Of a stretch of 64,000 bases of DNA, positions 2,933 to 43,766 are shown one piece after another. This stretch comes from Thermoanaerobaculia bacterium (GTDB taxonomy: Bacteria; Acidobacteriota; Thermoanaerobaculia; Multivoradales; Multivoraceae). Both the position numbers and the translations under genes were made by a program. Under the pieces are notes generated by a model that saw only the letters and a list, made by a program, of their open reading frames with translations, searched no databases and was not told the origin of the DNA. How positions within the stretch are numbered: position 1 is the first letter of the stretch; every line of letters begins with the position of its first letter. The stretch covers positions 2,464,001 through 2,528,000 of the forward strand of contig OY762911.1 in the NCBI GenBank assembly GCA_963666565.1. Direction: 5' to 3'.

Positions 2933-2967
2933 GACGGCAGTCTTGCATGGAACCTGCCGCCAAAGCG

Positions 2968-3039
2968 TTGCCGGCCTGACGGCCGGCGCGTTGCCTGGCC
3001 GCCTTCGGCGGCAGCGGGTCGGAAGACCCGCGCACCCGG
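2968..3039 (-). repeat. REP-like repeat with two trailing hairpins
   Basis: Reverse complement reads GGGTGCGCGGGTCTTCCGACCCGCTGCCGCCGAAGGCGGCC...GCCGGCCGTCAGGCCGGC, close to the copy at 58651. Confidence 0.85.
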
Positions 3040-3056
3040 CTCTTCGTGACGGACCC

Positions 3057-3983: not shown

Positions 3984-4084
3984 GGGCCGCATTCTGCCTT
4001 GCCGCGCTCGGATCGGTCCAGCGGGATCCGAGCCTTGCGGCGCCCCGGCTTTCGCGGTCCAGGGCGTTGTCCGCGCGCGCCGCG

Positions 4085-27470: not shown

Positions 27471-28547
27471 ATGAGGAAGAACGAACGGTCGAGTGCCGCG
27501 GCGACGACAGGCGCCGTGGTCCTGTTGCTCGGACTCGCCGCCGGCGCGGTTTCGGCGGCCAACAACAACGCCAACGACGCGGACTGGACGATTCCCCGCA
27601 CCGCCTACGGCCATCCCGACCTCCAGGGCGTGTGGGAGAACAACAACGGCACGCCGCTGCAGCGGCCCGCCGCCTGGGCGGGCAAGGAGCGCCTGACGGA
27701 CGAGGAGTTCCAGGAGCTGATGGCCGCGGTCGCCGAGGCGACGGACCCCGGCGCGGACGCCCTGTTCGGCGACCAGCTCGTCCTCGCGGCGATCGAGCGG
27801 ACGAAGGCGACGTCCTACGACCCGACGACCGGCAACTACAACCAGTTCTGGATCGCGGACCGCTACTTCACGAAGCGCACGTCCCTCGTCGTCGATCCCC
27901 CCGACGGCCTCATCCCGCCGTTCACGGAAGACGCCAAGGAACGCCTCTGCAAGCGGGTGAAGCACCTGATGGAGCATCCGGCCGATTCCTGGCTCGACCG
28001 GCCGATCGCCGAGCGCTGCATCAGCTACGGCGCCCCCTTCATCTTCCCGGGCTACAACGGCTATCACCAGTTCTTCCAGAGCCCGGACCACGTCGTCATT
28101 CACCAGGAGATGATCCACGACGCACGGGTCATCCGGTTGGACGACGAGTCCGCGCTCGACGACGACGTCCGGCTGTGGAACGGCGACTCCCGCGGCCACT
28201 GGGACGGCGACACCCTGGTCGTCGAGACGACGAACTACTCGAAGAAGAACGACTTCATGGGCTCCTCGGAGCAGCTTGCGATCACTGAGCGGTTCACCCT
28301 GACGGACCCGGAGACCCTGGAATGGGAGGTCACGGTGCACGACCCGGGGACGTGGACGAAGCCCTGGACGGCCTCGATTCCCCTCAAGCGCACGGAGGAC
28401 GCCATCTACGAGTACGCCTGTCACGAGGGCAACTACGGCATGGAGGGCATGCTCGCCGGCGCCCGCGCCCAGGAAGCGGCGAACAAGCCGAAGCAGATCG
28501 ACCCGGGCGCGGCCTTCCGCTACCCGGGTCTGATCTGCGACTTCTGA
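27471..28547 (+). CDS. Conserved secreted hypothetical protein
   Basis: GGAGGG RBS, signal peptide, PRTAYGHPDLQGVW, GDSRGHWDGDTLVVETTN and YEYACHEGNY motifs. Confidence 0.8.
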   Translation: MRKNERSSAAATTGAVVLLLGLAAGAVSAANNNANDADWTIPRTAYGHPDLQGVWENNNGTPLQRPAAWAGKERLTDEEFQELMAAVAEATDPGADALFGDQLVLAAIERTKATSYDPTTGNYNQFWIADRYFTKRTSLVVDPPDGLIPPFTEDAKERLCKRVKHLMEHPADSWLDRPIAERCISYGAPFIFPGYNGYHQFFQSPDHVVIHQEMIHDARVIRLDDESALDDDVRLWNGDSRGHWDGDTLVVETTNYSKKNDFMGSSEQLAITERFTLTDPETLEWEVTVHDPGTWTKPWTASIPLKRTEDAIYEYACHEGNYGMEGMLAGARAQEAANKPKQIDPGAAFRYPGLICDF

Positions 28548-28588
28548 GCGGAGGGGCGCCGCTCTCTTCGGTCGGGTGATGGACCCGG

Positions 28589-28960
28589 CTACACGCACAT
28601 GATCTGGCTCATGCCGAGGAGTTGGTTGCCGTAGGTCTTGAGCCTCGGCTGCTTTGTGCCTTCGCCCAGGACGATGTAGACGATGCCGCTGAGCAGAAGC
28701 GTGGTGCAGCCCAGCTTCGACCAGCGGCCCCCTTCCGCGCTCTCCAGGTCGATCGTCCGGAGACCGTCGAGCTCGGGGCGAGGCAGGCTCGTTGCCTGCT
28801 TCGCGGGATCCCCGTAGAGCGCCGCATCCGCGTGGGGGGCCGCATCCGCGTACGGGGCCGCATCCGCGCGGAGCGCGGCGCCCGCGTCGGGCGCGGCGGC
28901 CAGGGGAGCGCCGGCGGTCGTGAGGAGGAGGGCCAGTGCGATGGCTGTGAGGTTCTTCAT
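28589..28960 (-). CDS. Small secreted precursor peptide B (signal peptide + double-glycine-type leader + two-Cys core)
   Basis: AAAGGAG RBS; MKNLTAIALALLLTTAGAPLAA signal; LRTIDLESAEGG motif; core RWSKLGC...MCV. Confidence 0.75.
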   Translation of the reverse strand: MKNLTAIALALLLTTAGAPLAAAPDAGAALRADAAPYADAAPHADAALYGDPAKQATSLPRPELDGLRTIDLESAEGGRWSKLGCTTLLLSGIVYIVLGEGTKQPRLKTYGNQLLGMSQIMCV

Positions 28961-29020
28961 GGTCGATGGCTCCTTTGCCTGTGGATGGTTGAGAAGAGGC
29001 TCTTGCCCCTCCTGTAGACA

Positions 29021-29057
29021 AAGACGCGATCCGGCGGCGAAACACGGTTTCGCCGCC
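29021..29057. promoter_or_regulatory. Shared 14-bp motif plus 11-bp hairpin upstream of peptide B
   Basis: AAGACGCGATCCGG (29021-29034) is identical to 30298-30311; stem GGCGGCGAAAC/GTTTCGCCGCC at 29033-29057. Confidence 0.45.
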
Positions 29058-29156
29058 CGGTGTTCGCCGTTCTCGCGGCGCTCGAACAGGAAGGGCCGGC
29101 CGTTCGACCGGGCCGGCGGGTAGACGAACCGCCGTGCGACCGTTCGTCTTCGCGCG

Positions 29157-29849
29157 TCAGCCGCTCAGCATCGTCTCGCGCCGTTCGGCGCGGGCGAAGG
29201 TGAGCGCGACGATGGCGGCGATGGCCAACGCGATGCCGATGCGGTTCTGGAGGCCCATGGCGAGCAGTTGCTCCGCGTCGGCGCCTTCTACCGCCAGAGG
29301 ATTCCAGAGCGGTGAGACCCGTAGCTGTGATGCTCCCGAGGCGGTGATCCAACCGTTCAGAGCCAGGATCCCGCCGGCGGCCAGGGCACCGGTTGCCTGG
29401 CTACGGAACAGAGTGGACATTCCCATTGACGCGGCCAGGTAGAAGATGACGCCTTGAAAGGCGCCGTAGAGAGTCTGGACGACAGGGAACGGCGTGAAGA
29501 AGGCGAAGGTCAGGATCGCCATCAGGCCGAGGGCCAGAAGCAGCATCAAGCAAGCGGCGGCCAGCTTCCCGATCCAGACGCGACGCGTTCCGCCCGGCAC
29601 TGTGTAGGCGACTTCGAGGGTACGTTCATCGAGTTCCCCTGCGACGATGCGGCCGCCCAGAAACACCCCGAGGACCGCGACCGGCAGTCCGATCAGGATG
29701 TTCTGGGCGGCCGCGGGCTCGAAGCTCGGGCGGCCGCCGGCGATCAGGAGGCCGGCCTGCGCCAGGAGCCAAAGTGCCGGCGACAGGGGCAGCAGCCACC
29801 AGCGGCGACCGGCGAGCAGCACGGCGGGTAGGTGGACCGGCGCGATCAA
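29157..29849 (-). CDS. Small ABC-2-type permease, paralog 2
   Basis: 230 aa, about 6 TM; GELDERTLEVAYTVPG; C-terminus nearly identical to paralog 1. Confidence 0.8.
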   Translation of the reverse strand: MIAPVHLPAVLLAGRRWWLLPLSPALWLLAQAGLLIAGGRPSFEPAAAQNILIGLPVAVLGVFLGGRIVAGELDERTLEVAYTVPGGTRRVWIGKLAAACLMLLLALGLMAILTFAFFTPFPVVQTLYGAFQGVIFYLAASMGMSTLFRSQATGALAAGGILALNGWITASGASQLRVSPLWNPLAVEGADAEQLLAMGLQNRIGIALAIAAIVALTFARAERRETMLSG

Positions 29850-29889
29850 CCTACGGGCTCGCCGTGTTTGTCGCGGATCGTCGTCACCA

Positions 29890-30183
29890 CTAGACGCACT
29901 TCAGATGCTGAAGAACACGGCCGCCGACCTGTAGAACCCGGTTTGCGGAAAGCCAGCCGGCTACGAAGAGGATGCCGCCAGCGATCCGAAGGCCGGCGGT
30001 GCAGGCGTCGTGCCGGAACGCGGCGCCGACGACGTCGGCCAGGTCGGCCTCGGCAAGCTGCCGAACTCCCGGGTCGTGAACGACGGGTGCCCCGTCGAGT
30101 GCGGCCGGGTTCGGCGGTTCGGCGACGGCGGCGCCGGCCAGCAGCAGAATGGCGGAAAGTGCGATGGATGCGAACTTCGTCAT
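29890..30183 (-). CDS. Small secreted precursor peptide A (signal peptide + double-glycine-type leader + two-Cys core)
   Basis: Start reassigned to ATG 30183 after AAAGGA; MTKFASIALSAILLLAGAAVA signal; LAEADLADVVGA motif; core AFRHDAC...KCV. Confidence 0.75.
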   Translation of the reverse strand: MTKFASIALSAILLLAGAAVAEPPNPAALDGAPVVHDPGVRQLAEADLADVVGAAFRHDACTAGLRIAGGILFVAGWLSANRVLQVGGRVLQHLKCV

Positions 30184-30297
30184 GATGTTGATTCCTTTCT
30201 TTGGAAACGGGTTGTTCGAATGGCGGAGCGGCGTCTTCCGGCCCGGCGCGAGCACAGGGCCCGGCGCCGGGAACGGCTGCAGCTTCCGCTATGGACT

Positions 30298-30311
30298 AAG
30301 ACGCGATCCGG
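30298..30311. promoter_or_regulatory. Shared 14-bp motif upstream of peptide A
   Basis: AAGACGCGATCCGG, identical to 29021-29034. Confidence 0.45.
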
Positions 30312-30354
30312 ACGAAAAAGTCGGCGAACTCGTTTCCGGGGCGAAGTGACCGGC

Positions 30355-31047
30355 TCAGCCGCTCAGCATCTTCTCGCGCCGTTCGGCGCGGGCGAAAGTG
30401 AGCGCGACGATGGCGGCTATCGCGAGGGCGATGCCGATCCGGTTCTGTACGGCGAGCGCGAGTAGGCGTTCCGGGTCGATGTCCTCGATCGCCAGCGGGT
30501 TCCAGAAGGGCGAGACGCGCACGGGCTGGGTCCCCAGGCCGGTGATCAGGCCGTTGAAGCCGAGGACGGCCACGCTCGCGAGGGCGCCGGCCACTTCGCT
30601 GCGGAACAGCGTGGCGAACCCCATCGCGGCGGCGAGGTAGAAGGCGATGCCCTGAACGGCGCCGTAGAGGCTCTGGAGCACGGGGAAGGGAGTGAAGAAG
30701 GCGTAGGTGACCGCCGCCATGACGGCCACGCTGGCGCCCAGCAGCAGCCCGGCCGCGGCGAGTTTGCCGAGCCAGACGCGGTGGGCGCCGCCCGGCACCG
30801 TGTAGGCGATCTCCAGGCTGCGCTGGTCGAGTTCGCCGACGATCGTCCGGCCGCCGAGGAAGATGGCGAGCACCGCGACCGGCACGCCGATCAGCGTGTC
30901 CTGGGCCGCCGCGGGTTCGGCGGTTTCGCGGGCGCCGATCAGCAGCAGCAGTGCCTGCAGGCCGAGCCAGAGGAGCGGCAGCAGCGGCAGCAGCCAGAAC
31001 CGCCTGCCGGCCAGCAGCACGAGGGAGAGGCGAAGCACGGCCGTCAT
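30355..31047 (-). CDS. Small ABC-2-type permease, paralog 1
   Basis: ATG 31047 overlaps the upstream stop (ATGA); 230 aa; GELDQRSLEIAYTVPG; about 6 TM. Confidence 0.82.
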   Translation of the reverse strand: MTAVLRLSLVLLAGRRFWLLPLLPLLWLGLQALLLLIGARETAEPAAAQDTLIGVPVAVLAIFLGGRTIVGELDQRSLEIAYTVPGGAHRVWLGKLAAAGLLLGASVAVMAAVTYAFFTPFPVLQSLYGAVQGIAFYLAAAMGFATLFRSEVAGALASVAVLGFNGLITGLGTQPVRVSPFWNPLAIEDIDPERLLALAVQNRIGIALAIAAIVALTFARAERREKMLSG

Positions 31048-34000
31048 GCCGGCGCCTCCCCGCGCGCGGCACGGGCGAGCCAGAGATAGCCGTCCTCGAG
31101 CGTCGGTTCGACCGGTTCGGCGGCGTCGTTCGGTGGCCCTGAAGCGAGCACGCGCAAGCGGTTGCCTGCGGCTTCCGGCCGGCTGTCGGCCAGGACGGCG
31201 CCGGGCGGCAGGTCGGGTTGCTCCTCGCCCTCGGTCCGCCACGACCAGACTCGCCCGTCGGCCTCGCGCGACAGGGCGTCGGGCACGCCGTCGAACACCA
31301 GGCGGCCGCTGCTCAGCACGAGGACGCGCTCGCACGCCACCGCCACGTCTTCGACCACGTGGGTCGAGAACAGGACGATCCGGTCCTTGGCGAGCCGCGA
31401 CAGGAGGTTGCGGAAGCGCACCCGTTCGCGCGGGTCGAGGCCGACGGTCGGTTCGTCGACGACGATGATCGGCGGCAACCGGAGCAGCGTCCGCGCCACC
31501 GCGACGCGCTGGCGCATGCCGCCGGAGTAGCCGCCGATCGGTTCGCCGGCCCGCTCGGCGAGGCCGACCTCGGCCAGCAGGGACTCGATCCGCTCTTCCC
31601 GTACCTCCGGCTCTATCTGGTAGAGGGCGGCGTAGTACTCCAGGTACTGGCGGGCGGTCAGGCGGGCCGGCAGGCCGGCGTCCTGGGGCAGGTAGCCGAC
31701 CCAGCGCGCGAGATACTTGCGGATGCCGAGCAGCGGCACCCCTCCGATCGTGATCCGGCCGCGCGTCGAATCGAGGATCCCGGTCAACTGGCGGAGCAGG
31801 GTCGTCTTGCCGGCGCCGTTCGGCCCCAGCACGCCGACCATGCCGCGCTCCACGTCGAAGCTGACCGCCGCCAGCGCCCGCACCGTGTCGATGGGCAGGT
31901 CGAGGCCGAAGATCCGCGTCGCGGCGCCACGCCAGAAGACGAGCAGCGGGTTCCGGGAGCGACGGCGGTCCCGAGACGGGCTCTCCCGCCGCGCCGTCTC
32001 CCGGCGTGCGGTGCGGCGGCCCAACTGGACCACGGCGATGATGCCGCCGAAGATCGACAGGAAGATGGCCTCGGCGATGGCGAACTCGCCCGCGACCATC
32101 CAGGGCACGACGACGGCGGCCAGCGCGCCCCAGGGCATCAGCGCCGCCAGCACGCCCTCGACGCCGCCGGGCGCCACCCGGCCGAGCTCGTCGACGCGCC
32201 CGCGGGCCCGCCGGATCTCGAGCACCAGCCGGGACGCGATCGCGGCCGCCGCCGCGAGCAGGAGGAGCTTCCACAGCCCGTCCGCGATCCGGCTCACGGC
32301 GGCGATCGCGCCCGCAAGCAGCACGAGCAGGGGGAGCAGCCGGTCGCGGGCGTCGGCGGGGTGGAAGGGTTCGCCGTTCCGCGCCAGCACGCGCCGCGCG
32401 AAGTCGATCTTCGCGCGCAGCGCCCGCCGGAGCGGCCCGGGCAGGCCGTAGACCTTGCGCAGGTGCCGCACGACGAGTCGTGGCGGACCGTCCGCGGCCG
32501 CCGGCTCGGGCACGGCCTCCCTGGGCAGTGCCCGGACGGCGATGCCCAGCAGCGCGCCGCCGATCAGGATCGCCGTCGTGACCTGCCAGAACATCGACTC
32601 GACGACGTCGAACGCGAACAGCGGCCCGACGGCCGCGATCGTCGCGCCGAGCCAGACCATGACGACCCAGGGCCCGACCCGGCTGAAGAGTTCGTCGAGC
32701 CGGCGGAGGAACACGTAGCCGACGGGGATGACGAGCAGCGTGAGCACGGTCGCGGTCAGCAGTCCGCCGATGACCAGCACCGCGAAGGGCGGCCAGATCT
32801 CGTTGGCCCGGCCGGTGGGAATGGCGAGCGGGGCGAGCGCGGCGATCGTCGTGGCGCTGGTCATCAACACGGGGCGCGTCCGCTCCCTGACGGCGGCGAG
32901 GGCGGCCGCGCCGGCGCTCCAGCCGGCGCCGAGCGTCCGCTGCTGCATCCGGTCCACGAGCAGGACCGCCGGGTTCACCGCCAGTCCGAGCAGGACGAGA
33001 GCGCCCAGCAGGGCCATGCCGACCAGCCCCATCCCGCTGAAGACCAGCGCCCAGAGGGAACCGAGCAGGGTCAGCGGCAGGGCGAGCAGAACCAGCACGG
33101 GCAGGGTCATCGACTCGAAGGCGATCGCCAGGACGAGGAACAGGAGGGCGACGACCGGGACCAGGATCTTGCGGAACCAGTCCGTGCCCTGCGTGGACCG
33201 GTCGAGTTGCACGGTCGTGCCGGCGGGCCGGTAGACGGCGGCGATCGCGTCCTCGACGGCGCGGTCGAACGTCTGCCGCGCGGGGCCGCTGCCGGGCACG
33301 TCGCCGGACAGCCCGTAGGTCACCACCCGTTCGCGGCGCCCGTTGTGGTGGGTGATCACCGCCGCCGGCGGCGCCTGCCGCACGTCCGCCAGCGCCATGA
33401 CAGGCAGGACGCCCGCCCTGGTCGAGATCTGGAGCCGGGACAGGCCGGCGAGGGACACGTTCCGGTCGATCCCGCCGCCGTCCAGGACCTCCCGGTCGCC
33501 GAGCCCGCCCTCCAGCCGCTGAACCACGATCGGCAGCTCGCGGCCGCTGGGCAGCGGGTAGCCGCTGTTCATCCGGCTCCCCTCCCGGCCGGCGAGGTTC
33601 AGCATCGGCAGGACGTCGTCGAGCAGGACGCCGAAGGCCTCGAACGCGCGGCGATTCGGCCCGACGTGGATCTCCTCGGGGCCCGGCAGCACGGAGGGCG
33701 ACGCGTACGCGACCCCCTCGATGTTCCTGAGCCGGTCGGCGATCTCGTTCGCCAGGTCGGTCAGTTGTTCGTTGTCGTTGCCGGAGACGACGACCCGCTG
33801 GGGACCGCTGCCCAGCAGTTCCTCGGCGCCGCCGGCGCCGCCTCCTCCGCCGCCTCGACCGCCGCCGTCTTCCTCGCCGGGGCGGCTGAGCCTGATCGGC
33901 AACCGCCGCGCCGCGTCGCGGACGAGCCGGCGGACGCGGTTCGCGTTGAGGCCGGGCGGGCGCTCGTCCTCGGGCACGAGGTGTACCGTGAGCGAACCGC

Positions 34001-35846
34001 CCTCCTCGCGCACGAGGCTCTCGACGCGGTCGATCCCGTCGACGTCCCGCACCGACGCCTCGAGCCGCTCGAAGACTTGGACGGCGCCGTCCAGCGAACT
34101 CCGCCCCTGCGTGAGCCGTACCGAGAGCTGCACCTCGTCGGCGATTCGCGCCTGCGGTACGCCGCCCCCGATCACCAACGGCAACGCGATGACCGCCGTC
34201 AGGACGATCCCCAGCGCGACGAGGGTGACCAGGGTCGCCGGCCGCCTCAGGGCGGACGCGAGCCATCCGCTGAAGAGGACCCTGGTGGCTTCGGGCGGAG
34301 GTTCGCCGGCGAAGCGCTCCCGCCGTTCGCGCAGCACGGCGAGTCTCCGCAGGGCGGCCGGGGCCGCCAGCCAGCGCGCCAGCAGCGGCACCAGGCCCAT
34401 CGCGACGAGCAGGGAGCCCAGGAGCGGCAGCAGGATGGCCAGCGCGGCGATGGCGATCAGGTTGCGGATAGCGGGCGACCCGAGGTCGATCAGCATCGGC
34501 GGCAGGAAGACCGCCGCGGTCGTGGCGGACGCGGCGACGATGGCGCGCCCCGTGCGCCGGACGCCGCCGGCGGCGGCGGCGTCCGGGCCGTGGCCCCGCT
34601 CCAGGCGGCGCTGCACGGACTCGTAGACGACGACGCTGTTGTCGACCAGCAGCCCGACGCCGACCGCCAGGCCGAAGAGCGAGATCAGGTTGAGCGATTG
34701 CCCGGCGAGATAGAGGAAGCCGAGCGCCGACGCCAGACTGACCGGCACCGCGATCGCGACCACCGCCACCGCGCGCCACTGGCGAAGGAAGAGGAACAGG
34801 ACGAGCAGGGCGATGACGAAGCCGGAGAGGCCGAGATTGCGGAGCCGCTCCGTCTGTTCCTCGACCAGTTCGGCGGCGTCGAAGCCGATCGCGAGCCGCA
34901 CTCCGATCGGCGCCATCTCCTCGTTGATCTCGTCCACCCGCCTGCGGAGGTCGCGGCCGAGCCGGACCAGGTTCGCGCCCTCCTCCTGGAACGCGACGAG
35001 GCCGACGGCCGGTCGGCCGTCGACCCGGTTGGCCATCTGCCGGCGGCCCGGACCGATCTCGACGTGGGCGACGTGGCGGACGAGCACGGGGCGGTCGGGC
35101 CTCACCCGCACCTCGCCCAGGGACACGGGTCCCGCGGGCCGGCCGTCGAGCATGACCGCGGTCCGTCCGGCCTCGTCCTCCAGGCTGCCGAGGTAGCGGA
35201 GCCGCCCGGACGCTCCGCGGACCGCGTCGACCACCTCCTGCGGCGTCACGTCGAGCGCCGCGCAACGGTTCGGATCGACCCAGACCGTCAACTGCCGCGC
35301 GGCGCCGCCGGCCACCAGGGCCTGACTGACGCCCGGCACCGCCGCCAGCCGCGGCACGACGCGGTCCTCGACCAGTTCGTGGAGGGCGTCGATGTCCGCG
35401 GTCCCCGTCGCCTGGAGCGCCATCGCGAAGCTGGAGAGGATGCTGCTGTCGTTCGCCTGGACGTCGATGAAGGCGTCGCGCGGCTGGGTGCGGGCGATGT
35501 CGGCGGCCATCCGGTTGACGTCCAGTTCCCGCACCTTGAGGTCCGTGCCGCGCTCGAAGCGGATCGTGAAGGTGCCGGCGGAACCGGTCACCTCGCCCCA
35601 GGTCTCGGCGACGCCCGCCAGGGTGCGGACCCGCGCCTCCAGCGGCAGCAGCATCTCCCGCTCGACCGTCTCGGGCTCGCTGCCGGGGCGGATGAAGGAG
35701 ACGAACAGGCGGTCGCCGCTGACGTTCGGGAAGAGCTCGACCGGCAACCGCTGCCAGCCCACCGCGCCGACCAGCACCAGGCCGAGGAAGAACATGGCCA
35801 CCGCCACCGGGCGCCGGATGGCGAGGGTGTCGAGACCGTACTTCAC
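31044..35846 (-). CDS. RND (AcrB-like) permease fused to a C-terminal ABC ATPase domain
   Basis: AIRRPVA, GLLVDNSVVV and ERTRPVLMT (RND); GPNGAGKTT, YLPQD, YSGGMRQR, IIVVDEPT and STH (complete ABC motifs) in one 1600-aa ORF. Confidence 0.88.
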   Translation of the reverse strand: MKYGLDTLAIRRPVAVAMFFLGLVLVGAVGWQRLPVELFPNVSGDRLFVSFIRPGSEPETVEREMLLPLEARVRTLAGVAETWGEVTGSAGTFTIRFERGTDLKVRELDVNRMAADIARTQPRDAFIDVQANDSSILSSFAMALQATGTADIDALHELVEDRVVPRLAAVPGVSQALVAGGAARQLTVWVDPNRCAALDVTPQEVVDAVRGASGRLRYLGSLEDEAGRTAVMLDGRPAGPVSLGEVRVRPDRPVLVRHVAHVEIGPGRRQMANRVDGRPAVGLVAFQEEGANLVRLGRDLRRRVDEINEEMAPIGVRLAIGFDAAELVEEQTERLRNLGLSGFVIALLVLFLFLRQWRAVAVVAIAVPVSLASALGFLYLAGQSLNLISLFGLAVGVGLLVDNSVVVYESVQRRLERGHGPDAAAAGGVRRTGRAIVAASATTAAVFLPPMLIDLGSPAIRNLIAIAALAILLPLLGSLLVAMGLVPLLARWLAAPAALRRLAVLRERRERFAGEPPPEATRVLFSGWLASALRRPATLVTLVALGIVLTAVIALPLVIGGGVPQARIADEVQLSVRLTQGRSSLDGAVQVFERLEASVRDVDGIDRVESLVREEGGSLTVHLVPEDERPPGLNANRVRRLVRDAARRLPIRLSRPGEEDGGGRGGGGGGAGGAEELLGSGPQRVVVSGNDNEQLTDLANEIADRLRNIEGVAYASPSVLPGPEEIHVGPNRRAFEAFGVLLDDVLPMLNLAGREGSRMNSGYPLPSGRELPIVVQRLEGGLGDREVLDGGGIDRNVSLAGLSRLQISTRAGVLPVMALADVRQAPPAAVITHHNGRRERVVTYGLSGDVPGSGPARQTFDRAVEDAIAAVYRPAGTTVQLDRSTQGTDWFRKILVPVVALLFLVLAIAFESMTLPVLVLLALPLTLLGSLWALVFSGMGLVGMALLGALVLLGLAVNPAVLLVDRMQQRTLGAGWSAGAAALAAVRERTRPVLMTSATTIAALAPLAIPTGRANEIWPPFAVLVIGGLLTATVLTLLVIPVGYVFLRRLDELFSRVGPWVVMVWLGATIAAVGPLFAFDVVESMFWQVTTAILIGGALLGIAVRALPREAVPEPAAADGPPRLVVRHLRKVYGLPGPLRRALRAKIDFARRVLARNGEPFHPADARDRLLPLLVLLAGAIAAVSRIADGLWKLLLLAAAAAIASRLVLEIRRARGRVDELGRVAPGGVEGVLAALMPWGALAAVVVPWMVAGEFAIAEAIFLSIFGGIIAVVQLGRRTARRETARRESPSRDRRRSRNPLLVFWRGAATRIFGLDLPIDTVRALAAVSFDVERGMVGVLGPNGAGKTTLLRQLTGILDSTRGRITIGGVPLLGIRKYLARWVGYLPQDAGLPARLTARQYLEYYAALYQIEPEVREERIESLLAEVGLAERAGEPIGGYSGGMRQRVAVARTLLRLPPIIVVDEPTVGLDPRERVRFRNLLSRLAKDRIVLFSTHVVEDVAVACERVLVLSSGRLVFDGVPDALSREADGRVWSWRTEGEEQPDLPPGAVLADSRPEAAGNRLRVLASGPPNDAAEPVEPTLEDGYLWLARAARGEAPA

Positions 35847-35859
35847 GGGCGGTTCCGGA

Positions 35860-38800
35860 TCAGGCGTCCGCCGGCCGGCGCCGCGTCAGGCGGAACGAGT
35901 CGAGGATCAGGTAGACGCAGGGGAGCACGAGGAGCGAGCCGACGGTCGAGGTCAGGATGCCGCCGATGATCGTGTACGCCATCGGCCCGCGGAGTTCGGC
36001 CGCTTCGCCGGCGCCGACCGCCAGCGGCAGGAGCACGAGGACGGTGGTCAGCGTCGTCATCAGGATGGGCCGGAGCCGGATGGCCGCGGCGCGGGCCAGG
36101 GCGGCGCGCCGCTCCATGCCGGCGGCCATCAGCCGGCGGGCGGTCGCGAGCAGCAGCACGGCGTCGTTGACCGCAACCCCGGCCAGCACGATCAGCCCCA
36201 GGAGCGCCATGACGCCGACCGGGTTGCCCATCGGCCCCAGGGTGCAGGCGACGCCGACCAGGGCCAGCGGGATGGAGAACAGCACGGTGAGCGGCTGCAG
36301 CAGCGACTCGAACGTGCCGGCCAGCACCATCAGCACGAGGACGATCGCCAGCAGGCCGGCCCAGCGCAGCTCGCCCACCGCCTGCTCGCGCTCCTCCTCC
36401 TCGCCGGCCAGGCGCACGATCATGCCGGGCGGCAGCGCGGCGGCGCCCAGCACTTCCTCGGCGGCCGCCACCGCGCGCGGATAGTCGCTGCCGGTCGCGA
36501 TGCGGGCCGTGACCTGGGCCACCCGGCGCTGATCCCGGCGGAAGACCTCCCGGGCGCCTTCGGCGGGCTCGAAGCGGGCGACCTGGCCGAGGGCGAGCCG
36601 GGCGCCGCCGTCGTTCGTGAAGCGGAGGTCGGCGAGGTCCTCCGGGCGGGGTTGGGGCAGGGTGAGGACGACGTGGCGTTCCTCGTCGCCGGTCGAGAGC
36701 AGGGTGACGCGCCGCCCGTCGAGCGCCGACTCGAGCACGCGCGCGATCGTCTGGAGATCGACGCCCAGACCGTCCGCCATCGCCCGGTCGAGTTCGATGC
36801 GGAGTTCGGGCGGCCCGCCCTCGAAGGAGGAACGGACGTTCCAGACCTCCGGGCGGGAGGCGAGGGCCTCGCGCAGCTCGGACGCCACGGCGCGCAGGTC
36901 GGGCAGGGACTGGCTCGCGATCTCGAGCGCGATCGGCGGGCCGGTCGATCCGAGCGCCTCGGCCAGGGCGGAGGCGCCGACCTCCCACTCGATCTCGGTA
37001 TCCGGTATGTCGCGGAACCGCGGCGACAGGGCGTCCACGATCTGGTTGCCCGTCGGGCCGTCGGGCGAGAGCCGCACCAGGATCCGGGCGGTGTTCTCCT
37101 CCGTCAGTTCGGTGGTCACCAGCCGGTCGTCCTCGGGCAGGCGGCCGACTTCGGCCTGGATCGCCTCCAGGTGTTCGCCCGCGGCCTCGCGGATCGCGGC
37201 CTCCAGGGTGGCAACCGCGTTGGCCGTGGCCTCGACGCGCTGGCCGGCGGGGCCCACCATGCGAATGGAGAACTGCCGCGGGTCGGAGGGCGGCAGGAGC
37301 TCGCTGCCGAGGCCGAGCAGGACGTGGACCGCGCCGGCCGCGGCCAGGACCGCCGCCGGAACGACCGCCCAGCGTAGCCGCAGCAGGCCCAGGACCAGGC
37401 GTTCCGTCGCCCTGAAGGCGCGGCCGAGGGGGGGCGCCTCTTCCTCTTCCGTGGCCTCTGGCGCGTCCTCTACGGCCGCCGCCGGTTCGCCGCTGTGGCC
37501 GGCGGAGCTGGCGGCCGCGGCCTTCGCCCGCGGCAGCAGCCAGCGCGACAGGGCGGGGATCAGCATCATGGCGACCGCCAGCGAAGCGCCGAGCGAGGCG
37601 ACGACGGTGAACGAGATGCCCTCGATCAGGCGGGCGGCGAGTCCCTGGACGAACAGCACCGGCAGGAACACGACGCAGGTGGTCAGGGTCGAGGCGGCGA
37701 TGGCTCCCGCCACCTCCGAGGCGCCGCGGGCGGCGGTGTCCGCGGCCGACACGCCGGGGCGGTGGCGGCGGTGAATGCTCTCGACGACGACGATCGCGTT
37801 GTCGACCAGCATGCCGGCGCCGAGCGCCAGCCCGGCGAGGGTGATGATGTTGAGCGAGTGGTCCGCCAGGCGCATGGCGAACAGGGCGACGAAGAGGGAC
37901 ACCGGAACCGCCGACGCGACGACCACGGTCGGTCCGAGGGAGCGGAGGAACAGCGCCAGGACGACGATCGCCAAGGCGATGCCGACCAGCGCGGCGTTCA
38001 TCAGGTCGTCCATCGCGTTCTCGACCAGCGCCGCGTCGTCGTTGACCATGGACACGCTCACCCTGGGGAGGTCGCGCTCCAGGTCGTTGAGCGCGTCCCG
38101 CACCGTGCGGGACACCTCGACCGTGTTGGCCCCGGCCTCCTTGAACACCTGGAGCCCCACGCCCTCCACGCCTCCGACCCGGACCAGGTGGTCGATCTCG
38201 GCGTCGGCCAGCGCCACGTCGGCGACGTCCGATACCCGGATCGGCTGGCGGGTCATCTGGCCGGCGGCGCCCTGCTGGGTACGGTAGCGAACCACGACGC
38301 GTTCGACGTCGCGCGCTTCGCGGAAACGGGCGATGCCGCGGACGAGGTAGACGTCGCCTCCGTCCTCCAGGGTGCCGGCGTCGATGTCCAGGTTCTCCGC
38401 CATCAAGCGCTGCTCGAGTTGATTCAGAGTGACGCCGAACGCCTCGAGCCGGTAGCGGTCGACCCGGACCTGCACCTCGAGGTCCCGTCCGCCGAGAACG
38501 CGCACCTCCGCCACGTCGGGAAGCTCTTCCATGGCGGGCGCCAGTTGCCGACGGGCCAGCCGGCGCAGCTCGGCGAGGTCCGGCCCGTCGTCCTCCGCCA
38601 CCAGGCCCAGGGTCATCACCGGCGCTTGGCGGGGGTCGAGATGCCGGACGAGGACCTCGTCGACCTCCGGGTCGGCGGCGACGGGGTTCACGGCCTTCTG
38701 GACCTCGATCAGGGCGAAGTCCATCTCGGCGTCCCAGTCGAACCGGACGGTTGCGATGAGCCGCCCGGAACGGGCCACCTGCTGCACTTCGCGGATGCCG

Positions 38801-39048
38801 CGCACGGTGAACAGCCGCTGCTCGACCTGCTCGCCGTACAGGCGCTCCATCTCGGTCGGCGGCCGGTCGCCGGAGCGGACCGCGACGACGATCGTGGGCG
38901 AGCGCAGGTCGGGCAGCAGGTCGATCGGCAGCTCGCGCCAGGAGATCCAACCGACGAGCGCGAAGGCCAGCGCGGTGACCGTGACCGCGACCGGGCGCCG
39001 CGCGGCGAGACGTGCCGCCGCGGACGTGCTACCGGGCGCCGCGGTCAT
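35860..39048 (-). CDS. RND efflux permease
   Basis: AARRPVA, GMLVDNAIVVVE and RLRPILMTT motifs; 1062 aa. Confidence 0.92.
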   Translation of the reverse strand: MTAAPGSTSAAARLAARRPVAVTVTALAFALVGWISWRELPIDLLPDLRSPTIVVAVRSGDRPPTEMERLYGEQVEQRLFTVRGIREVQQVARSGRLIATVRFDWDAEMDFALIEVQKAVNPVAADPEVDEVLVRHLDPRQAPVMTLGLVAEDDGPDLAELRRLARRQLAPAMEELPDVAEVRVLGGRDLEVQVRVDRYRLEAFGVTLNQLEQRLMAENLDIDAGTLEDGGDVYLVRGIARFREARDVERVVVRYRTQQGAAGQMTRQPIRVSDVADVALADAEIDHLVRVGGVEGVGLQVFKEAGANTVEVSRTVRDALNDLERDLPRVSVSMVNDDAALVENAMDDLMNAALVGIALAIVVLALFLRSLGPTVVVASAVPVSLFVALFAMRLADHSLNIITLAGLALGAGMLVDNAIVVVESIHRRHRPGVSAADTAARGASEVAGAIAASTLTTCVVFLPVLFVQGLAARLIEGISFTVVASLGASLAVAMMLIPALSRWLLPRAKAAAASSAGHSGEPAAAVEDAPEATEEEEAPPLGRAFRATERLVLGLLRLRWAVVPAAVLAAAGAVHVLLGLGSELLPPSDPRQFSIRMVGPAGQRVEATANAVATLEAAIREAAGEHLEAIQAEVGRLPEDDRLVTTELTEENTARILVRLSPDGPTGNQIVDALSPRFRDIPDTEIEWEVGASALAEALGSTGPPIALEIASQSLPDLRAVASELREALASRPEVWNVRSSFEGGPPELRIELDRAMADGLGVDLQTIARVLESALDGRRVTLLSTGDEERHVVLTLPQPRPEDLADLRFTNDGGARLALGQVARFEPAEGAREVFRRDQRRVAQVTARIATGSDYPRAVAAAEEVLGAAALPPGMIVRLAGEEEEREQAVGELRWAGLLAIVLVLMVLAGTFESLLQPLTVLFSIPLALVGVACTLGPMGNPVGVMALLGLIVLAGVAVNDAVLLLATARRLMAAGMERRAALARAAAIRLRPILMTTLTTVLVLLPLAVGAGEAAELRGPMAYTIIGGILTSTVGSLLVLPCVYLILDSFRLTRRRPADA

Positions 39049-39117: not shown

Positions 39118-40218
39118 TCATCCAGAGACGCTGACGCGGGTGCCGTCGGTCAGCGTTTCGAGTCCTCGGACGACGACCCGCTCGCCGACTTCGAGCCCCT
39201 GCCGCACCTCGGCGACCTCGTCGTCGCCGAGCCCGAGGACGACCTCGCGCCGAACGACGCGCTGCCCGTCGAGAACGAAGACGACGCGCCGGCCGCCCCG
39301 CTCGGTGATCGCCTCGCGCGGCACCACCGGGACTTCGTTCCGTTGCTCGACGACCAAGCTGACTTCGACGAACATGCCGGGCCGCAGCAGGCGGCCCGGG
39401 TTGCGCACGGCGACCTCGGCACGGAAGGTGTGGGTCACCGGGTCGACCTCGGGCGAGAGCCGGACGACCCCGCCGCCGAAGCTCTGGCCCGGCCAGGCGA
39501 AGTGCCGCAGCCGGGCTTCCTGGCCGGGGCGGACCCGCGCCAGTTCCGGGCCGACGAGGTCGATGTCGGCGATCAGCGAGTCGACGGGGGAGATGCGGGC
39601 GACCTGGAAGCCCTGGGTCACCAACTGGCCGTCGGCGACCGGCATGCCCTGGGCGTCGCGGGCGACCTCCATCAGCACGCCGCCGATCGGGGTGAGCAGG
39701 CGGGCCCGGTCTTCGGTGAGCAGACTCTGTTCCCAGCCCGCCTTCGCTTCCTCGAGCGACGTCTCCGCGCGGCGGAGCTCTTCGGCGCTGATCAGCTCCT
39801 GCTCGAACAGCCGGACGCGGGCGTCCCGCTCGGCCAGCGCCGAGAGGTAGGCCTTGTGGGTGACCTCGACCCGGGCGGCCAGGCGGGCGTCCTCGCCGGT
39901 GACCTCGGCGATGAGCTGGTCCGGAGTGACGCGGTCGCCCTCGGCGAGCCGGCGGCCGGACGGATGGCGCCCGACCTCCAGGCGGCCCGGGGTCTCGACC
40001 TGGAGCACCACGCTCTCGGCGGCCCGGAGCGTGCCGGTGGCCACGATCAGGTCCTCGACGTCCCCGGTCGTGACCTCGGCGGCGCTGACCGGGACCAGGA
40101 AGTCGATTTCGTTCGGGGCGCTAGCGGCCTGGCAGCCGAGGAGGACGGCGCAGGCGGCCGCCGCGGCAGCGCCGCGGCGGCGGACGGCGGGGGGGAATCT
40201 GCGGGCGGTCTCGTTCAC
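39118..40218 (-). CDS. RND periplasmic adaptor (MFP), lipoprotein
   Basis: GTG 40218 overlaps the upstream stop (GTGA); VLLGC lipobox; TPIGG, SPEVDPVTHTF and LRPGMFV motifs. Confidence 0.88.
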   Translation of the reverse strand: MNETARRFPPAVRRRGAAAAAACAVLLGCQAASAPNEIDFLVPVSAAEVTTGDVEDLIVATGTLRAAESVVLQVETPGRLEVGRHPSGRRLAEGDRVTPDQLIAEVTGEDARLAARVEVTHKAYLSALAERDARVRLFEQELISAEELRRAETSLEEAKAGWEQSLLTEDRARLLTPIGGVLMEVARDAQGMPVADGQLVTQGFQVARISPVDSLIADIDLVGPELARVRPGQEARLRHFAWPGQSFGGGVVRLSPEVDPVTHTFRAEVAVRNPGRLLRPGMFVEVSLVVEQRNEVPVVPREAITERGGRRVVFVLDGQRVVRREVVLGLGDDEVAEVRQGLEVGERVVVRGLETLTDGTRVSVSG

Positions 40219-43200
40219 TGGATCGCTACGCCTCCGCCGGTGGGCGCCGCGTCCGCGGCGCCGCCGGTGTCGAGCCGGACGAAGCGGACGGCGTCGGCCG
40301 CCACCGCGGTGCCCTCGGTCCGGTCGCTGAGCACCAGCGAGACGGGGCCGGACGCGAGGTCGAAATCGCCCAGGACCGCCCAGCCGGGGCCGGCGCTGGC
40401 GGCGTCGAAGTCGATGGATCGCGAACTGCCGCCGTTCTCGAGCTCCAGGTCGTAGTCGCCGAGCCGGAGGCCGAGGTTCACCGAGACCTGGACGCCCTCG
40501 TTTCCGCCCCGGCTGGGGGCGCCGCCGCCATCGTCGCCGATCCGCACCTCCCGCCGGATCTCTCCCGTGCCGGGCGGCAGCGGCGACAGGGACGGCACAT
40601 GGATCTCGACCCGCCAGCGGCCGGCTTGCGGCAGGTGGGCGCTGTAGGTTGCGCGGCGATCTCCCTCGCCGGCCGGGCCGACGACGGCCGTTCGCCGGTA
40701 GCGGCCCCAGCTTCGCGGCTGCCTGTAGCGCGACCACTCCCGGGGGGCGCCGAGGAAGGGCTGGTAGACGGGCAGGCCCCGGTCCAGCTCGATCGAGGGC
40801 GCGAAGTAGCCGGTCAGCCCTCCCTGGAGTCTCACGCCGCCGTCCGAGGCGGCCTTCTCGTCGCTGACCGAGAACCCGGAATCCAGGTCGTCGACGACGA
40901 TCACCTCGGTGTCCGCGTCGAGCCAGTCGGGCAACCAGTCGCTGGGCCGCGCGCCGCGCAGCGGCGCGCGCTCGACGATCCGCTCGCTGTCGACCGCGGG
41001 AAGGTCCACCGGGAACTCGCCCCGGTTGAGGGAGAGGTAGGGCGACGCGAGCATCAGTCCCGGCGGCGTCGACGTGACCAGCCCGAACTCCACCGAGGTC
41101 AGGCCCGGAACGAGGACCGGCTCGCTCGAGTCCCACCGCGGGCCGGCGTCGGACCGGACGGCGTAGCGGAGGCGGAACAGCCCCGGCGTCGGCTCGCCGT
41201 TGTGGACGGAGAGTCGGGTCTCGTACCGCGGGGCGCCCTGGTCGTCGTCGGCGAGGCGGACCAGGTCGGCGGCGGAGACGACGAAGCCGGGCAGGTCCGT
41301 GTCGTGCAGGAAGTCGCCCACCAGGCCGGCGAGGTCGATGCCCGCTTCCCCGGCGGCGCGGTCGAGGTCGGCGGCGTCGAAGGTCGTCCCCGCGTGGTCG
41401 CGCACCAGGTTCGCGACCATGGCCGCGGTCCGTTCGCGCCCGGCGCCGTCCAGGATGGCGGTGGCGAGCGCCGACGTCTTCAGATAGATGGCGTTGACCG
41501 CCCGCCTGGGATCTTCCTCCACCCTCAGGTCGGTCAGGGAGCTGCCGAGCACCGCCTCCCAGACTTCCGGGCGGTCCGTGATCGCGTTGACGATGCCGCT
41601 GGAGACGGAACCGCCGCCGGCCGCGAACTGGCCGCTGAACCCGTCCTGCAACGCGTTGCTGAGGGTCCAGCCCATGTTGCGGTCGAAGAGGTGGACGGAG
41701 AAGTAGGACTCGCCGCCGGTCACCAGCCGGTTGACCAGGTTGTGGCACAGCGCTTCCAGCGCCAGGGATTCGGGGCCGCGAGCGCCGGTGCGGTAGAGGA
41801 ACAGGTTGCGCGCGCCGCCCACCAGAATGTTGCCGCCGGTGTAGTCGTTGGCGAAGTAGTTCTCAAGTCCCAGCGCCTTGGCGCGCGGCAGGCCTCCTTC
41901 CCGGTCCTCGAACCGTTCGGGGTTGCGGAAGGTGAACTCGAAGCGGGAAGTCGGCAGTCCGTTCTCGCCGATCAGCAGCATGCCGGGCGGCGCCCTTGCG
42001 GTGTCCATCCTCCATCCGCCGCCGTAGCCGCGCAGGGTCCACGGCACCTCGACCAGGGAGAGTTGCCGGTAGGGGTAGGGGAGGCCGACTTCCCGGGCCG
42101 TGGCGAAGTGCTCGGCCGCGCGCTCCTCGATCGCCTCGCGGGCGTCGGCGAAGAACTCCAGGTTGCGGAGGTGGCGCCGGTCGAACAGCACTTCGATTTC
42201 GACGCCGTCGACCTCGGTCGTCCGGCGATCGTAGACGCCGGCGATCAGGGCGGCCTCCGGCACGGCCGCCGCCGGCCGGAAGCGTACGCGGTCGCCGTTC
42301 GGCTCGCCCTTGCCGGGGCCGGCGACGGTCCAGCCGGACGGGGCGCCGACGTCGAGGTCGAGCTCGAAGAAGTCCCGCGGCCGCTTCCGCGGGTCGTCGA
42401 CGCCGATCAGGGCGCCCGCGCGGGGCAGCCAGGCGAGGCCCGGGACCAAGGACACGAAGCGGCGCTCCAGTACGCCGTTGAGCGAGCCGAGAAGGACCAC
42501 CTGGGCGTCCTGGTAGCTGAGCCGCTCCAGGTCGATCGTCGAGTCCAGGTAGGCGAAGCGGATGTCGGGCCGGCCGCGGGCGCGCAGCCGCAGGTCGACC
42601 GTCTCGCCGGCCGCTGCTCGGCCGAGGTCGACCTCCAGCAGGCCGTCCCGGTGGGTGAAGGGGAGGGATCCGCCGGATCCGTGCTCGACCGCGTCGACCG
42701 CGATGCCGGGGTTCAGGCTGAACAGTGCCTGGGCGCCGCCGGCCGGGGCGAACCGGACCTCGAGGTCCAGGTCGAGGCGCCCCCCGGGCCCGATGTCGAC
42801 CGTGCCCCGGATGCGCTCGACATCGACCGCCGGCTCCTCCTGCCGGGCACGGTGCGCGTCCCGCCAGCCGTCGACCATGTCGAGTTCTCCCCGGCTTCCG
42901 CCGAACATGGCGACCAGGGTGGCGGCGCCGACGGCGCACAGGCCGCCGCCGCCGAGCCCCCAGGCGCGCCGGCGGGCGTCGTCGAGCCGCGGATGGACCG
43001 CGACGGCGATGCCGAGGAGCCCGGCGGCGAGGACCGTCAGGCTGCCCCGGTTCAGGATGTTCTCGGCGTTCCAGAGCTGCGGCGCCAGTTCCGAGATGTT
43101 GCCGGTGAAGCCGCCGTTGATGCCCAGGACGGGCAGCGCGTAGACCGGCAACCGCACGCTCAGCCAGATGCCGCCGATCGCGAGCCCGACGCCGGCCAGC

Positions 43201-43766
43201 GCCGCGACCAGCCGGTTCCGGCTCACCAGGGCGACGGCCTGGACGAAGGCGACGTAGAGCGCGAGGGCCGGTAGCGCGTCCAGGATCAGGAAGGCCCATA
43301 CGGAACTCCACAACGCGGGCTCGCCGACGTACCAGCCGAGGCCAATGGCGAGGTAACCGAAGCCCTGGATCAGCATCAGCGCCAGGACCGCGACGCTCAT
43401 CGCCATGAGCAGGGCGCCGGCGAACCGCCCCAGCACCAGTTCGGCGTTCGAGTAGGGCCGGCTGTCCAGGACCTCGATCACGCGGTCGCGCCGGTCCCGG
43501 GCGCGCAGGTCGAAGGCGAGGAAGATGACGCCGATGGCGAGGACGACCGTCTGCCACGACCCCATCTGAGCGAGCAGGTACCTGGGACTGAAGATCGAGA
43601 CGCTCCCCGACCAGCCGGACGCCAGGCCGTGGAAGGCCCAGTAGAAGCCGTACGACACCACGCAGTACAAGAGCGCGGCGCCGGAGAAGAACCAGAACCG
43701 GAACAGGCGGCGGATGGTGCGCATCTCGGCCCGGGCCAGGGTCCATGCCGCGGCGAGTGAAATCAC
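40215..43766 (-). CDS. Large ABC-2 permease fused to a degenerate M1-aminopeptidase-like ectodomain and a C-terminal golvesin/CBD-like domain
   Basis: N-terminal TMs with RDRRDRVIEVLDSRPYSN; FSLNPG and PYRQLSLVEVP; no HEXXH seen; C-terminal GWAVLGDFDL...LSD...ADAVRFV. Confidence 0.72.
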   Translation of the reverse strand: MISLAAAWTLARAEMRTIRRLFRFWFFSGAALLYCVVSYGFYWAFHGLASGWSGSVSIFSPRYLLAQMGSWQTVVLAIGVIFLAFDLRARDRRDRVIEVLDSRPYSNAELVLGRFAGALLMAMSVAVLALMLIQGFGYLAIGLGWYVGEPALWSSVWAFLILDALPALALYVAFVQAVALVSRNRLVAALAGVGLAIGGIWLSVRLPVYALPVLGINGGFTGNISELAPQLWNAENILNRGSLTVLAAGLLGIAVAVHPRLDDARRRAWGLGGGGLCAVGAATLVAMFGGSRGELDMVDGWRDAHRARQEEPAVDVERIRGTVDIGPGGRLDLDLEVRFAPAGGAQALFSLNPGIAVDAVEHGSGGSLPFTHRDGLLEVDLGRAAAGETVDLRLRARGRPDIRFAYLDSTIDLERLSYQDAQVVLLGSLNGVLERRFVSLVPGLAWLPRAGALIGVDDPRKRPRDFFELDLDVGAPSGWTVAGPGKGEPNGDRVRFRPAAAVPEAALIAGVYDRRTTEVDGVEIEVLFDRRHLRNLEFFADAREAIEERAAEHFATAREVGLPYPYRQLSLVEVPWTLRGYGGGWRMDTARAPPGMLLIGENGLPTSRFEFTFRNPERFEDREGGLPRAKALGLENYFANDYTGGNILVGGARNLFLYRTGARGPESLALEALCHNLVNRLVTGGESYFSVHLFDRNMGWTLSNALQDGFSGQFAAGGGSVSSGIVNAITDRPEVWEAVLGSSLTDLRVEEDPRRAVNAIYLKTSALATAILDGAGRERTAAMVANLVRDHAGTTFDAADLDRAAGEAGIDLAGLVGDFLHDTDLPGFVVSAADLVRLADDDQGAPRYETRLSVHNGEPTPGLFRLRYAVRSDAGPRWDSSEPVLVPGLTSVEFGLVTSTPPGLMLASPYLSLNRGEFPVDLPAVDSERIVERAPLRGARPSDWLPDWLDADTEVIVVDDLDSGFSVSDEKAASDGGVRLQGGLTGYFAPSIELDRGLPVYQPFLGAPREWSRYRQPRSWGRYRRTAVVGPAGEGDRRATYSAHLPQAGRWRVEIHVPSLSPLPPGTGEIRREVRIGDDGGGAPSRGGNEGVQVSVNLGLRLGDYDLELENGGSSRSIDFDAASAGPGWAVLGDFDLASGPVSLVLSDRTEGTAVAADAVRFVRLDTGGAADAAPTGGGVAIQ

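Follow-up and report, generated by a model that had tools for sequence, protein, structure and literature searches.

Two divergent peptide precursors with a Sec-type signal and a double-glycine-type leader in an efflux-pump operon of an Acidobacteriota genus

The window analysed here, a stretch of 64,000 nt from the genome of a Thermoanaerobaculia bacterium (assembly GCA_963666565.1, contig OY762911.1), contains one long operon on the minus strand, in which two small genes encode peptides A and B. These are best explained as pre-pro-peptides of a larger family of exported two-leader peptides, in a branch that is restricted to one genus. All coordinates are positions in the window unless another sequence is named, and the operon and both peptide genes are on the minus strand; its first gene is at 43763-44761, and its last is the gene of peptide B at 28589-28960. 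The features of the two precursors are the following:

29890..30183, minus strand: precursor gene of peptide A, 97 aa plus stop codon (a listed open reading frame, ORF, matched by hidden Markov model, HMM)
30121..30183, minus strand: Sec-type signal peptide of A, residues 1-21, AVA followed by EPP (read from the sequence; Ala at -1 invariant in the family alignment)
30022..30057, minus strand: double-glycine-type leader of A, LAEADLADVVGA, residues 43-54
29893..30021, minus strand: predicted 43-aa core of A, AFRHDAC...KCV, with Cys61 and Cys96
28589..28960, minus strand: precursor gene of peptide B, 123 aa plus stop codon (a listed ORF, matched by HMM)
28821..28868, minus strand: 18-nt tandem repeat, 2.7 copies, in the linker of B, encoding (A)DAAP(Y/H) units
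28727..28762, minus strand: double-glycine-type leader of B, LRTIDLESAEGG, residues 67-78
28592..28726, minus strand: predicted 45-aa core of B, RWSKLGC...IMCV, with Cys85 and Cys122

Both ORFs exist as an earlier note on this DNA had described them, each with a ribosome-binding-site-like sequence (AGGA/AAGGAG) 9 nt ahead of its ATG. The signal peptides proposed for both are of the n/h/c type when read by eye: a basic residue is followed by a hydrophobic stretch of 15-17 residues, and positions -3 and -1 are occupied by small residues. A linker of 20 residues in A and of 45 residues in B leads from the signal to a motif that fits the double-glycine (GG) leader consensus, as had been claimed for both peptides, with Ala at position -4 in B. 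The core that follows has a Cys as its seventh residue in A and in B, with 34 (A) or 36 (B) residues between the two cysteines, and both peptides do end in Cys-Val. The public proteins P0053 and P0048 are orthologues of B, the latter a near-identical variant that is 6 aa shorter.

A and B are not aligned with each other by BLASTP, so that their relation had to be sought with profiles: an HMM built from 32 relatives, with A and B excluded, detects A at 1.5e-22 and B at 1.7e-7, in keeping with the earlier description of the two as paralogous yet divergent. A composite pattern (signal, GG-type motif and a Cys...Cys-x end), run on the 52,160 frames of the genome, selects two of them, A and B, versus one reversed frame and 0-1 frames in each of five shuffles. 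The family set consists of 34 distinct homologues from syntenic loci of the genus, A and B included. The alignment columns that never vary hold the Ala that precedes the presumed cut by signal peptidase, the leader-motif Gly (-2) and both Cys. All 34 members have a signal-like segment of 21-22 residues and a linker ahead of the motif, match L(-12), D/E(-8), L/M(-7), V(-4) and G(-2) (B itself having the Ala at -4), and keep exactly two Cys with 32-37 residues between them; neither the motif glycine nor either cysteine, whose loss in homologues would have told against the earlier note, is missing from any of them. The tail after the last Cys is one residue long in 31 members and two residues long in the other three. 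Two particulars need to be narrowed when they are extended from A and B to the family. The distance of exactly seven residues from the processing site to the first Cys holds for A and B and for 15/34 members overall, the others having it at +6 (9), +4 (6), +5 (2) or +3 (2); and of the GG/GA site, the Gly at -2 is the invariant part, position -1 being G (14) or A (7) in 21/34 members and R (8), E (3) or K (2) in the other 13, where the next residue is G or A. Mean pairwise identity in the family is highest in the signal (0.53), followed by the leader (0.42), the core (0.30) and the linker (0.28); the core is 38-46 residues long with a grand average of hydropathy (GRAVY) of +0.32 to +1.38. Pfam and NCBIfam hold no family for A or B, and a stored homologue in Protein Atlas gave noise-level rows only (scores of ~0.8).

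The family profile is present in 34/41 other genomes of the genus, and among 15 genomes of 12 other genera of the taxonomic family it finds a single weak match that is probably spurious. A search of 1.84 billion representative proteins gave 29 matches at E <= 1e-3, called as proteins of equal length; the 24 additional metagenomic representatives that were retrieved all match the same leader motif, its glycine included, and have the two Cys, and the metagenomic and public relatives are annotated as hypothetical proteins in their sources. The A/B family is confined to one genus of the Acidobacteriota. High-GC DNA yields many spurious ORFs, and A and B could on that ground be taken for chance open frames rather than genes, but the probability of this is negligible: it is already contradicted by conservation, the frames being kept in those 34 genomes with their functional residues invariant, as well as by the 29 same-length protein calls and by the ribosome-binding-site-like sequences ahead of both starts.

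The cores of A and B are confidently predicted to be helix-turn-helix hairpins, as the earlier note had suggested from the sequence, with per-residue confidence above 90 in both cores. In the AlphaFold2 model of A, helices occupy residues 40-79 and 82-92, with a predicted local distance difference test (pLDDT) score of 93-97 across residues 61-90, and a further helix occupies residues 4-19. In the model of B, a short leader helix (69-75) is broken at the GG and is followed by helices at 78-102 and 105-122 (pLDDT 82-93); in B, 17 residues separate either cysteine from the turn, so that both would sit where the hairpin is open. A Foldseek search of the PDB with the model of A returned nothing better than E = 2.7.

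Upstream of each peptide gene is a copy of an 18-nt element:

30294..30311, minus strand: 18-nt element CCGGATCGCGTCTTAGTC, also written CCGGATCGCGTCTT(T/A)GTC, upstream of A
29017..29034, minus strand: 18-nt element, one base different, upstream of B

The element is located 126 nt upstream of the start codon of A and 72 nt upstream of that of B, and has two matches in the window versus 0.12 expected. None of the other 32 family genes, which are from other species, was found to have it upstream, so that A and B are the only two of the 34 with it; it could be part of an operator or promoter peculiar to this species, or a duplication scar. An Rfam scan of 28400-31200 gave no match, and a scan for promoters and terminators gave nothing exceeding shuffled controls. 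A shared upstream element would suit secreted signalling peptides (pheromones) that undergo the same processing and are sensed by a receptor. GG leaders are also used by competence and bacteriocin-inducing pheromones, and there are sub-threshold matches to BlpC, at 0.0022 for one related peptide and at 0.017 or weaker for 2/34 family members. Such a role is nonetheless improbable: no histidine kinase or response regulator is encoded among the scanned neighbours, clamped hairpin cores of 38-46 residues are large for a pheromone, and several very different cores occur in each genome.

A periplasmic C39 peptidase, of the kind that the proposed two-step maturation would employ, was sought in the genome, and one was found that is predicted to face the periplasm and is linked to peptides homologous to A and B:

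G000:C1:1903484-1904101: C39 peptidase gene

This is the single C39 peptidase of the genome (104 bits, cut-off 22), a protein of 206 aa with an Arg-rich N-terminus, one hydrophobic anchor and then the C39 domain, not fused to an ABC (ATP-binding cassette) exporter; the Arg-rich N-terminus followed by one hydrophobic segment predicts, by the positive-inside rule, that the domain faces the periplasm. Its Gln, Cys, His and Asp are conserved in 10/10 aligned copies, and its nearest solved relatives are LahT150, PCAT1 and ComA. The gene upstream encodes an anchored TlpA-like thioredoxin-fold protein with a CGNC motif. Downstream are three small ORFs with Sec signals, of which two combine a GG-like site with a Cys...Cys core, and the locus continues with membrane proteins, then a DrrA-type ABC ATPase, then two proteins of the YknW/Yip1 kind. 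A 304-aa membrane protein of this locus has no detectable relation to the permeases of the window, and no glycosyltransferase family is represented among the scanned neighbours of A/B and of the C39 gene. Directly after the C39 gene is a conserved, small secreted Cys/Pro-rich ORF (...YWPCGC.P.PGCP.P.PWP...; L066:6168-6485, minus strand, in G000) without the GG motif, of which ten distinct versions occupy the same position in relatives.

The C39 peptidase also matches the models of FapD (8.9e-12; 44.8 bits, cut-off 330) and FilB (4.4e-5; 23 bits, cut-off 475), both below cut-off, and many of the cores encoded beside C39 genes are rich in Gly, Ala and Val. Both observations would fit extracellular fibre or coat subunits of the kind proposed for Fap/Fil-type periplasmic C39 systems, with Gly/Ala-rich cores that polymerise. 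That the peptides are such subunits is very improbable, since the enzyme is closer to the peptidase domains of PCAT exporters (3.8e-23) than to FapD, since no FapF-type outer-membrane channel and no amyloid-repeat protein or fibre subunit was seen among the genes scanned around C39 and A/B, and since A and B are predicted to be helical hairpins.

Evidence that connects A and B with the C39 peptidase comes from the stand-alone C39 loci of the genus, 46/50 of which have, within 2.6 kb downstream, 1-4 small ORFs on the same strand that begin with a signal-like segment and have a hydrophobic C-terminal part bracketed by Cys; in two of the four exceptional loci, less than 250 nt of sequence remain. 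These ORFs amount to 97 distinct sequences, of which ten are the separate Cys/Pro-rich type. An HMM made from the other 87, none of them from the A/B alignment, was run on all 52,160 frames of the genome. Its two best matches are the C39-adjacent peptides (3.9e-18 and 1.2e-13), after which come A in third place (3.8e-8) and B in fourth (6.2e-4), and the frame that follows scores 0.26; the glycine and cysteine of the profile align with those of A and B. Three relatives have a C39 paralogue within the pump operon: the syntenic slot of G019 contains a pump-ATPase fusion, a permease, the C39 paralogue and a peptide, while in G036 and in G031 the genes for C39 and a peptide come after a second pump-ATPase fusion. 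In G003 a permease is followed by C39. Beyond the genus, genes for a thioredoxin, a C39 peptidase, a Sec-GG-Cys peptide, two unknown (membrane) proteins, an ABC ATPase and Yip1 are found in this order in the metagenome-assembled genomes (MAGs) of a member of the Ignavibacteriales and of a distant member of the Acidobacteriota (L118:4523-9029 and L122:346-5526), and in rearranged form in a third MAG; the cassette is thus not limited to one genus. Linkage of the C39 peptidase to the peptides by phylogenetic profile was tried and discarded, co-occurrence being uninformative when C39 is universal in the genus.

The remaining genes of the window operon, and the convergent gene that closes the locus, are as follows (RND, resistance-nodulation-division):

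43763..44761, minus strand: DrrA/GldA-type ABC ATPase, the first gene of the operon
40215..43766, minus strand: 1183-aa protein with an N-terminal ABC-2 membrane domain and ~900 residues without a family
~39118..40250 (start approximate), minus strand: HlyD-type membrane-fusion protein (Pfam HlyD_D23, 5.1e-17, in the C-terminal part of the frame)
35860..39048, minus strand: second AcrB-type RND subunit, 1062 aa (Pfam ACR_tran, 3.4e-199)
31044..35846, minus strand: AcrB-type RND pump fused at its C-terminus to a DrrA-type ABC ATPase, 1600 aa (Pfam ACR_tran, 3e-139, and ABC_tran, 3e-26)
30355..31047, minus strand: ABC-2 permease paralogue 1, 230 aa, upstream of A (gene start overlapping the pump-gene stop)
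29157..29849, minus strand: ABC-2 permease paralogue 2, 230 aa, upstream of B (Pfam ABC2_membrane_2)
27471..28547, plus strand: convergent 358-aa protein with a signal-like N-terminus, closing the locus (conserved)

The 1183-aa protein is one real gene, with a GC content at third codon positions (GC3) of 0.88-0.97 over the entire frame; it has no NCBIfam match and, outside the ABC-2 domain, only a Golvesin_C-like C-terminal stretch of 34 bits. A change of frame at the HlyD-type gene is visible in GC3. The two permeases, which are 67% identical and of which one precedes each peptide gene, match ABC2_membrane_2 at or slightly below the cut-off (26.2 bits for paralogue 2, just under the 27.2 required). 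Models of the drrA subfamily in NCBIfam score 4e-48 to 4e-64, and the lantibiotic-protection and PmtA models fall under their cut-offs; a DrrA-type ATPase and ABC-2 permease(s) adjoin the peptide genes, as in transporters of the LanFEG/Pmt type. The fusion of an AcrB-type pump to a DrrA-type ATPase implies a physical coupling of the RND pump with the ABC-2 permeases. Homologues of the fusion are common in metagenomes, numbering 1,057 proteins at E <= 1e-10 among 8,000 candidates scored; among the matches listed, 120/120 carry both Pfam domains, and their sources annotate them generically. Genes of the TolC type and of the DsbA family are present elsewhere in the genome. The convergent 358-aa protein belongs to no Pfam or NCBIfam family, and its gene flanks the peptide array in 16 of the 17 mapped syntenic loci.

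In all 17 syntenic loci, the genes for AcrB and AcrB-ATPase are followed by 1-3 peptide genes among 2-4 permease copies or fragments, and the peptide-less genomes that were checked (5/5) hold one full-length permease and no peptide. This arrangement, with peptide genes between or after the permease genes of one conserved operon and with a gain of peptides that accompanies a gain of permease copies, could indicate that the peptides are small accessory subunits of the RND/ABC-2 system and not released products, each C-terminal hairpin remaining in the inner membrane after insertion by Sec to tune or plug the pump (compare AcrZ with AcrB, and YknW with YknXYZ), in which case the GG would be a hinge or would be cut only to free the anchor. 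The hydrophobicity of the cores is compatible with such a role, and the available text of PMC5985334 attests small membrane modulators of tripartite pumps. It is nevertheless unlikely, even if less so than the pheromone and fibre alternatives: homologous peptides are found in arrays of 1-4 beside C39 genes where there is no pump, the core is hypervariable and is exchanged as a cassette downstream of permeases that are identical, four basic residues are found in helix 2 of A, and conservation is centred on the leader and the two Cys rather than on a membrane interface.

The exchange of cores is seen at the DNA level in a comparison of G020 with G009, which are 97-100% identical through the permease, the spacer and the signal-peptide codons but 45-53% identical inside the peptide gene, with a sharp recombination breakpoint within that gene (L038:6250-7650 versus L032:6880-8290); the drop in identity means that everything following the signal peptide was replaced as a cassette. 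In a tree of the permeases, the copies in first position form one group, which includes paralogue 1, and later copies form another, while paralogue 2 is a long branch near the first-position group. This long branch, together with the 18-nt element that A and B share and that is absent in other species, fits a local duplication followed by fast divergence of B. In G019 (L055 2900-4250), the interval between the pump gene and the permease contains a peptide gene in inverted orientation (2921-3217, minus strand) and a fragment of an integrase core, rve_3 (3562-4203), which suggests that an insertion sequence rearranged this array.

The reading preferred here, that A and B are two-leader precursors, can be extended into a pathway that is fairly probable, judged from sequences and structural models: Sec export, cleavage by C39 in the periplasm, formation of one disulfide, and handling of the bacteriocin-like product by the RND/ABC-2 pump. 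The precursor would first be exported by Sec and cut by signal peptidase I after the conserved Ala (AVA|EPP in A). The single membrane-anchored C39 peptidase would then recognise the amphipathic leader in the periplasm and remove the pro-region at, or next to, the invariant Gly. A disulfide between the two invariant Cys, with the C39-associated thioredoxin or the general Dsb system as the oxidant, would close the open end of the 43-45-residue hairpin. Finally, the hydrophobic and mostly cationic hairpin may be a bacteriocin-like, membrane-active product, which the RND pump with its membrane-fusion protein would expel from the periplasm or the outer leaflet, while the extra ABC-2 permeases, driven by the ATPase fused to the pump, would keep it out of the producer's own membrane.

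Several observations weigh against parts of this pathway. As for the leader, models of GG leaders and bacteriocins do not match A or B at E up to 0.1, and 0/34 family members reach a cut-off (related peptides score 13.6-14.6 bits with a GG-leader model whose cut-off is 15.7); the R, E or K at -1 in 13/34 members is a non-canonical P1 residue for a C39 peptidase and makes the exact cut site uncertain, and G-T-G variants of the GG site are common beside C39 genes. As for the enzyme, the C39 gene is ~590 kb away from A and B in this genome, and it is present in 41/41 genomes of the genus, including the seven without the A/B family. As for the product, the AlphaFold2 models are based on shallow family alignments of 34-36 rows, with predicted template modelling (pTM) scores of 0.39-0.44, and with a GRAVY of up to +1.38 some cores could simply stay in the inner membrane. 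As for the pump, the pump-ATPase fusion is widespread outside the genus and the peptide family is not, which indicates that the pump has another primary role; moreover, identical first-position permeases precede different core types, which argues against core-specific immunity conferred by the neighbouring permease. A strict pairing of each permease with one cognate peptide was rejected for that reason. More tentatively still, and with somewhat less probability than the pathway itself, bacteriocin-like peptides of several diderm phyla may be exported through Sec, matured by a periplasmic stand-alone C39 peptidase with its own thioredoxin and handled by ABC-2/Yip1 or RND pumps; the genus studied here would then have well over 100 hypervariable, disulfide-clamped hairpin cores, swapped as cassettes behind a conserved signal peptide, and A and B would have been captured by an efflux-pump operon.

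To our knowledge, every double-glycine-leader peptide characterised so far undergoes cytoplasmic cleavage, carried out by its own exporter. Among periplasmic C39 peptidases only FapD has been studied, and it has no defined substrate yet according to the available text of PMC5557850; no published description of the Sec-GG-Cys peptide/C39 cassette was found in the literature, supplementary files being outside the scope of the search. The predicted anatomy of A and B and the linkage of their relatives to C39 point to an undescribed route for maturing double-leader peptides outside the cytoplasm. Because the putative substrates are short and explicit, have near-canonical leaders, and are accompanied by a matching enzyme and a thioredoxin, no more than three small genes are needed for a direct test of extracytoplasmic GG-leader processing. 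Should the cores prove active, single-disulfide hairpins of 38-56 residues would form a large natural library in this genus, and the link to an RND-ABC fusion pump, if true, would be a new example of peptide export from the periplasm.

The closest known relatives of A and B in design are the GG-leader peptides (class II bacteriocins, microcins) secreted by exporters of the peptidase-containing ABC transporter (PCAT) and ABC transporter maturation and secretion (AMS) type, which have the same leader spacing (-4, -7 and -12 hydrophobic, -8 acidic, -2 Gly) and likewise combine a conserved leader with a hypervariable core. The C39 domains of these exporters share the Gln/Cys/His/Asp set with the C39 peptidase described here, and are the most similar to it. 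The present system differs in that the leader of A and B is internal, behind a Sec signal and a linker of 20-45 residues, rather than N-terminal on a cytoplasmic precursor, and in that the C39 peptidase is a stand-alone protein of 206 aa, predicted to be anchored toward the periplasm, without ABC fusion. Unlike canonical GG leaders, those of the present peptides often have R, E, K or T at -1, and no leader model reaches its cut-off. Like the disulfide predicted for A and B, a disulfide of microcin V, pediocin PA-1 and cerein 7B involves a C-terminal or penultimate Cys.

FapD of the Pseudomonas Fap amyloid system, and FilB, resemble this C39 peptidase in being stand-alone, extracytoplasmic enzymes that act on Sec-exported proteins, as is predicted here. 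Unlike those of the Fap/Fil systems, the putative substrates are hydrophobic hairpin cores of 38-56 residues and not fibre subunits, and there is no FapF-type channel; the partners of the enzyme are a thioredoxin, an ABC ATPase and Yip1 proteins, and by score it is not an equivalog of FapD or FilB.

Glycocins are helical hairpins stapled by disulfides, and the cores of A and B, as modelled by AlphaFold2, have the same helix-loop-helix form. Unlike pediocin and glycocins such as sublancin, A and B allow a single disulfide (glycocins having two nested ones), have no glycosyltransferase nearby, belong to a diderm host and would be exported by Sec first. Loci of the pediocin type encode the thiol-disulfide oxidoreductase PedC alongside the C39-ABC exporter PedD, as described in the available parts of PMC4919988 and PMC9148482, and, going by the same parts, these loci and those of glycocins share with the present one a dedicated thioredoxin-family protein beside the C39 function and a GG-leader peptide with a disulfide (here a predicted one).

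For the later steps, the nearest parallels are the E. coli enterotoxin STII, which after Sec export and oxidation by DsbA leaves the periplasm through expulsion by MacAB-TolC, and YknWXYZ, which protects against the Sec-dependent SDP peptide (both according to the available text of PMC5985334). With these, going by that text, the proposed route would have in common Sec export, periplasmic oxidation and expulsion by a pump with a membrane-fusion protein (PMC5985334). It differs in its RND pair, fused to an ABC ATPase and accompanied by ABC-2 permeases, in place of a MacB-type pump, in the extra C39 step, and in its peptides, which have no sequence similarity to STII or SDP. The likeness to YknWXYZ extends to gene content, Yip1/YknW-like proteins and ABC ATPases adjoining the peptide genes of the C39 locus.

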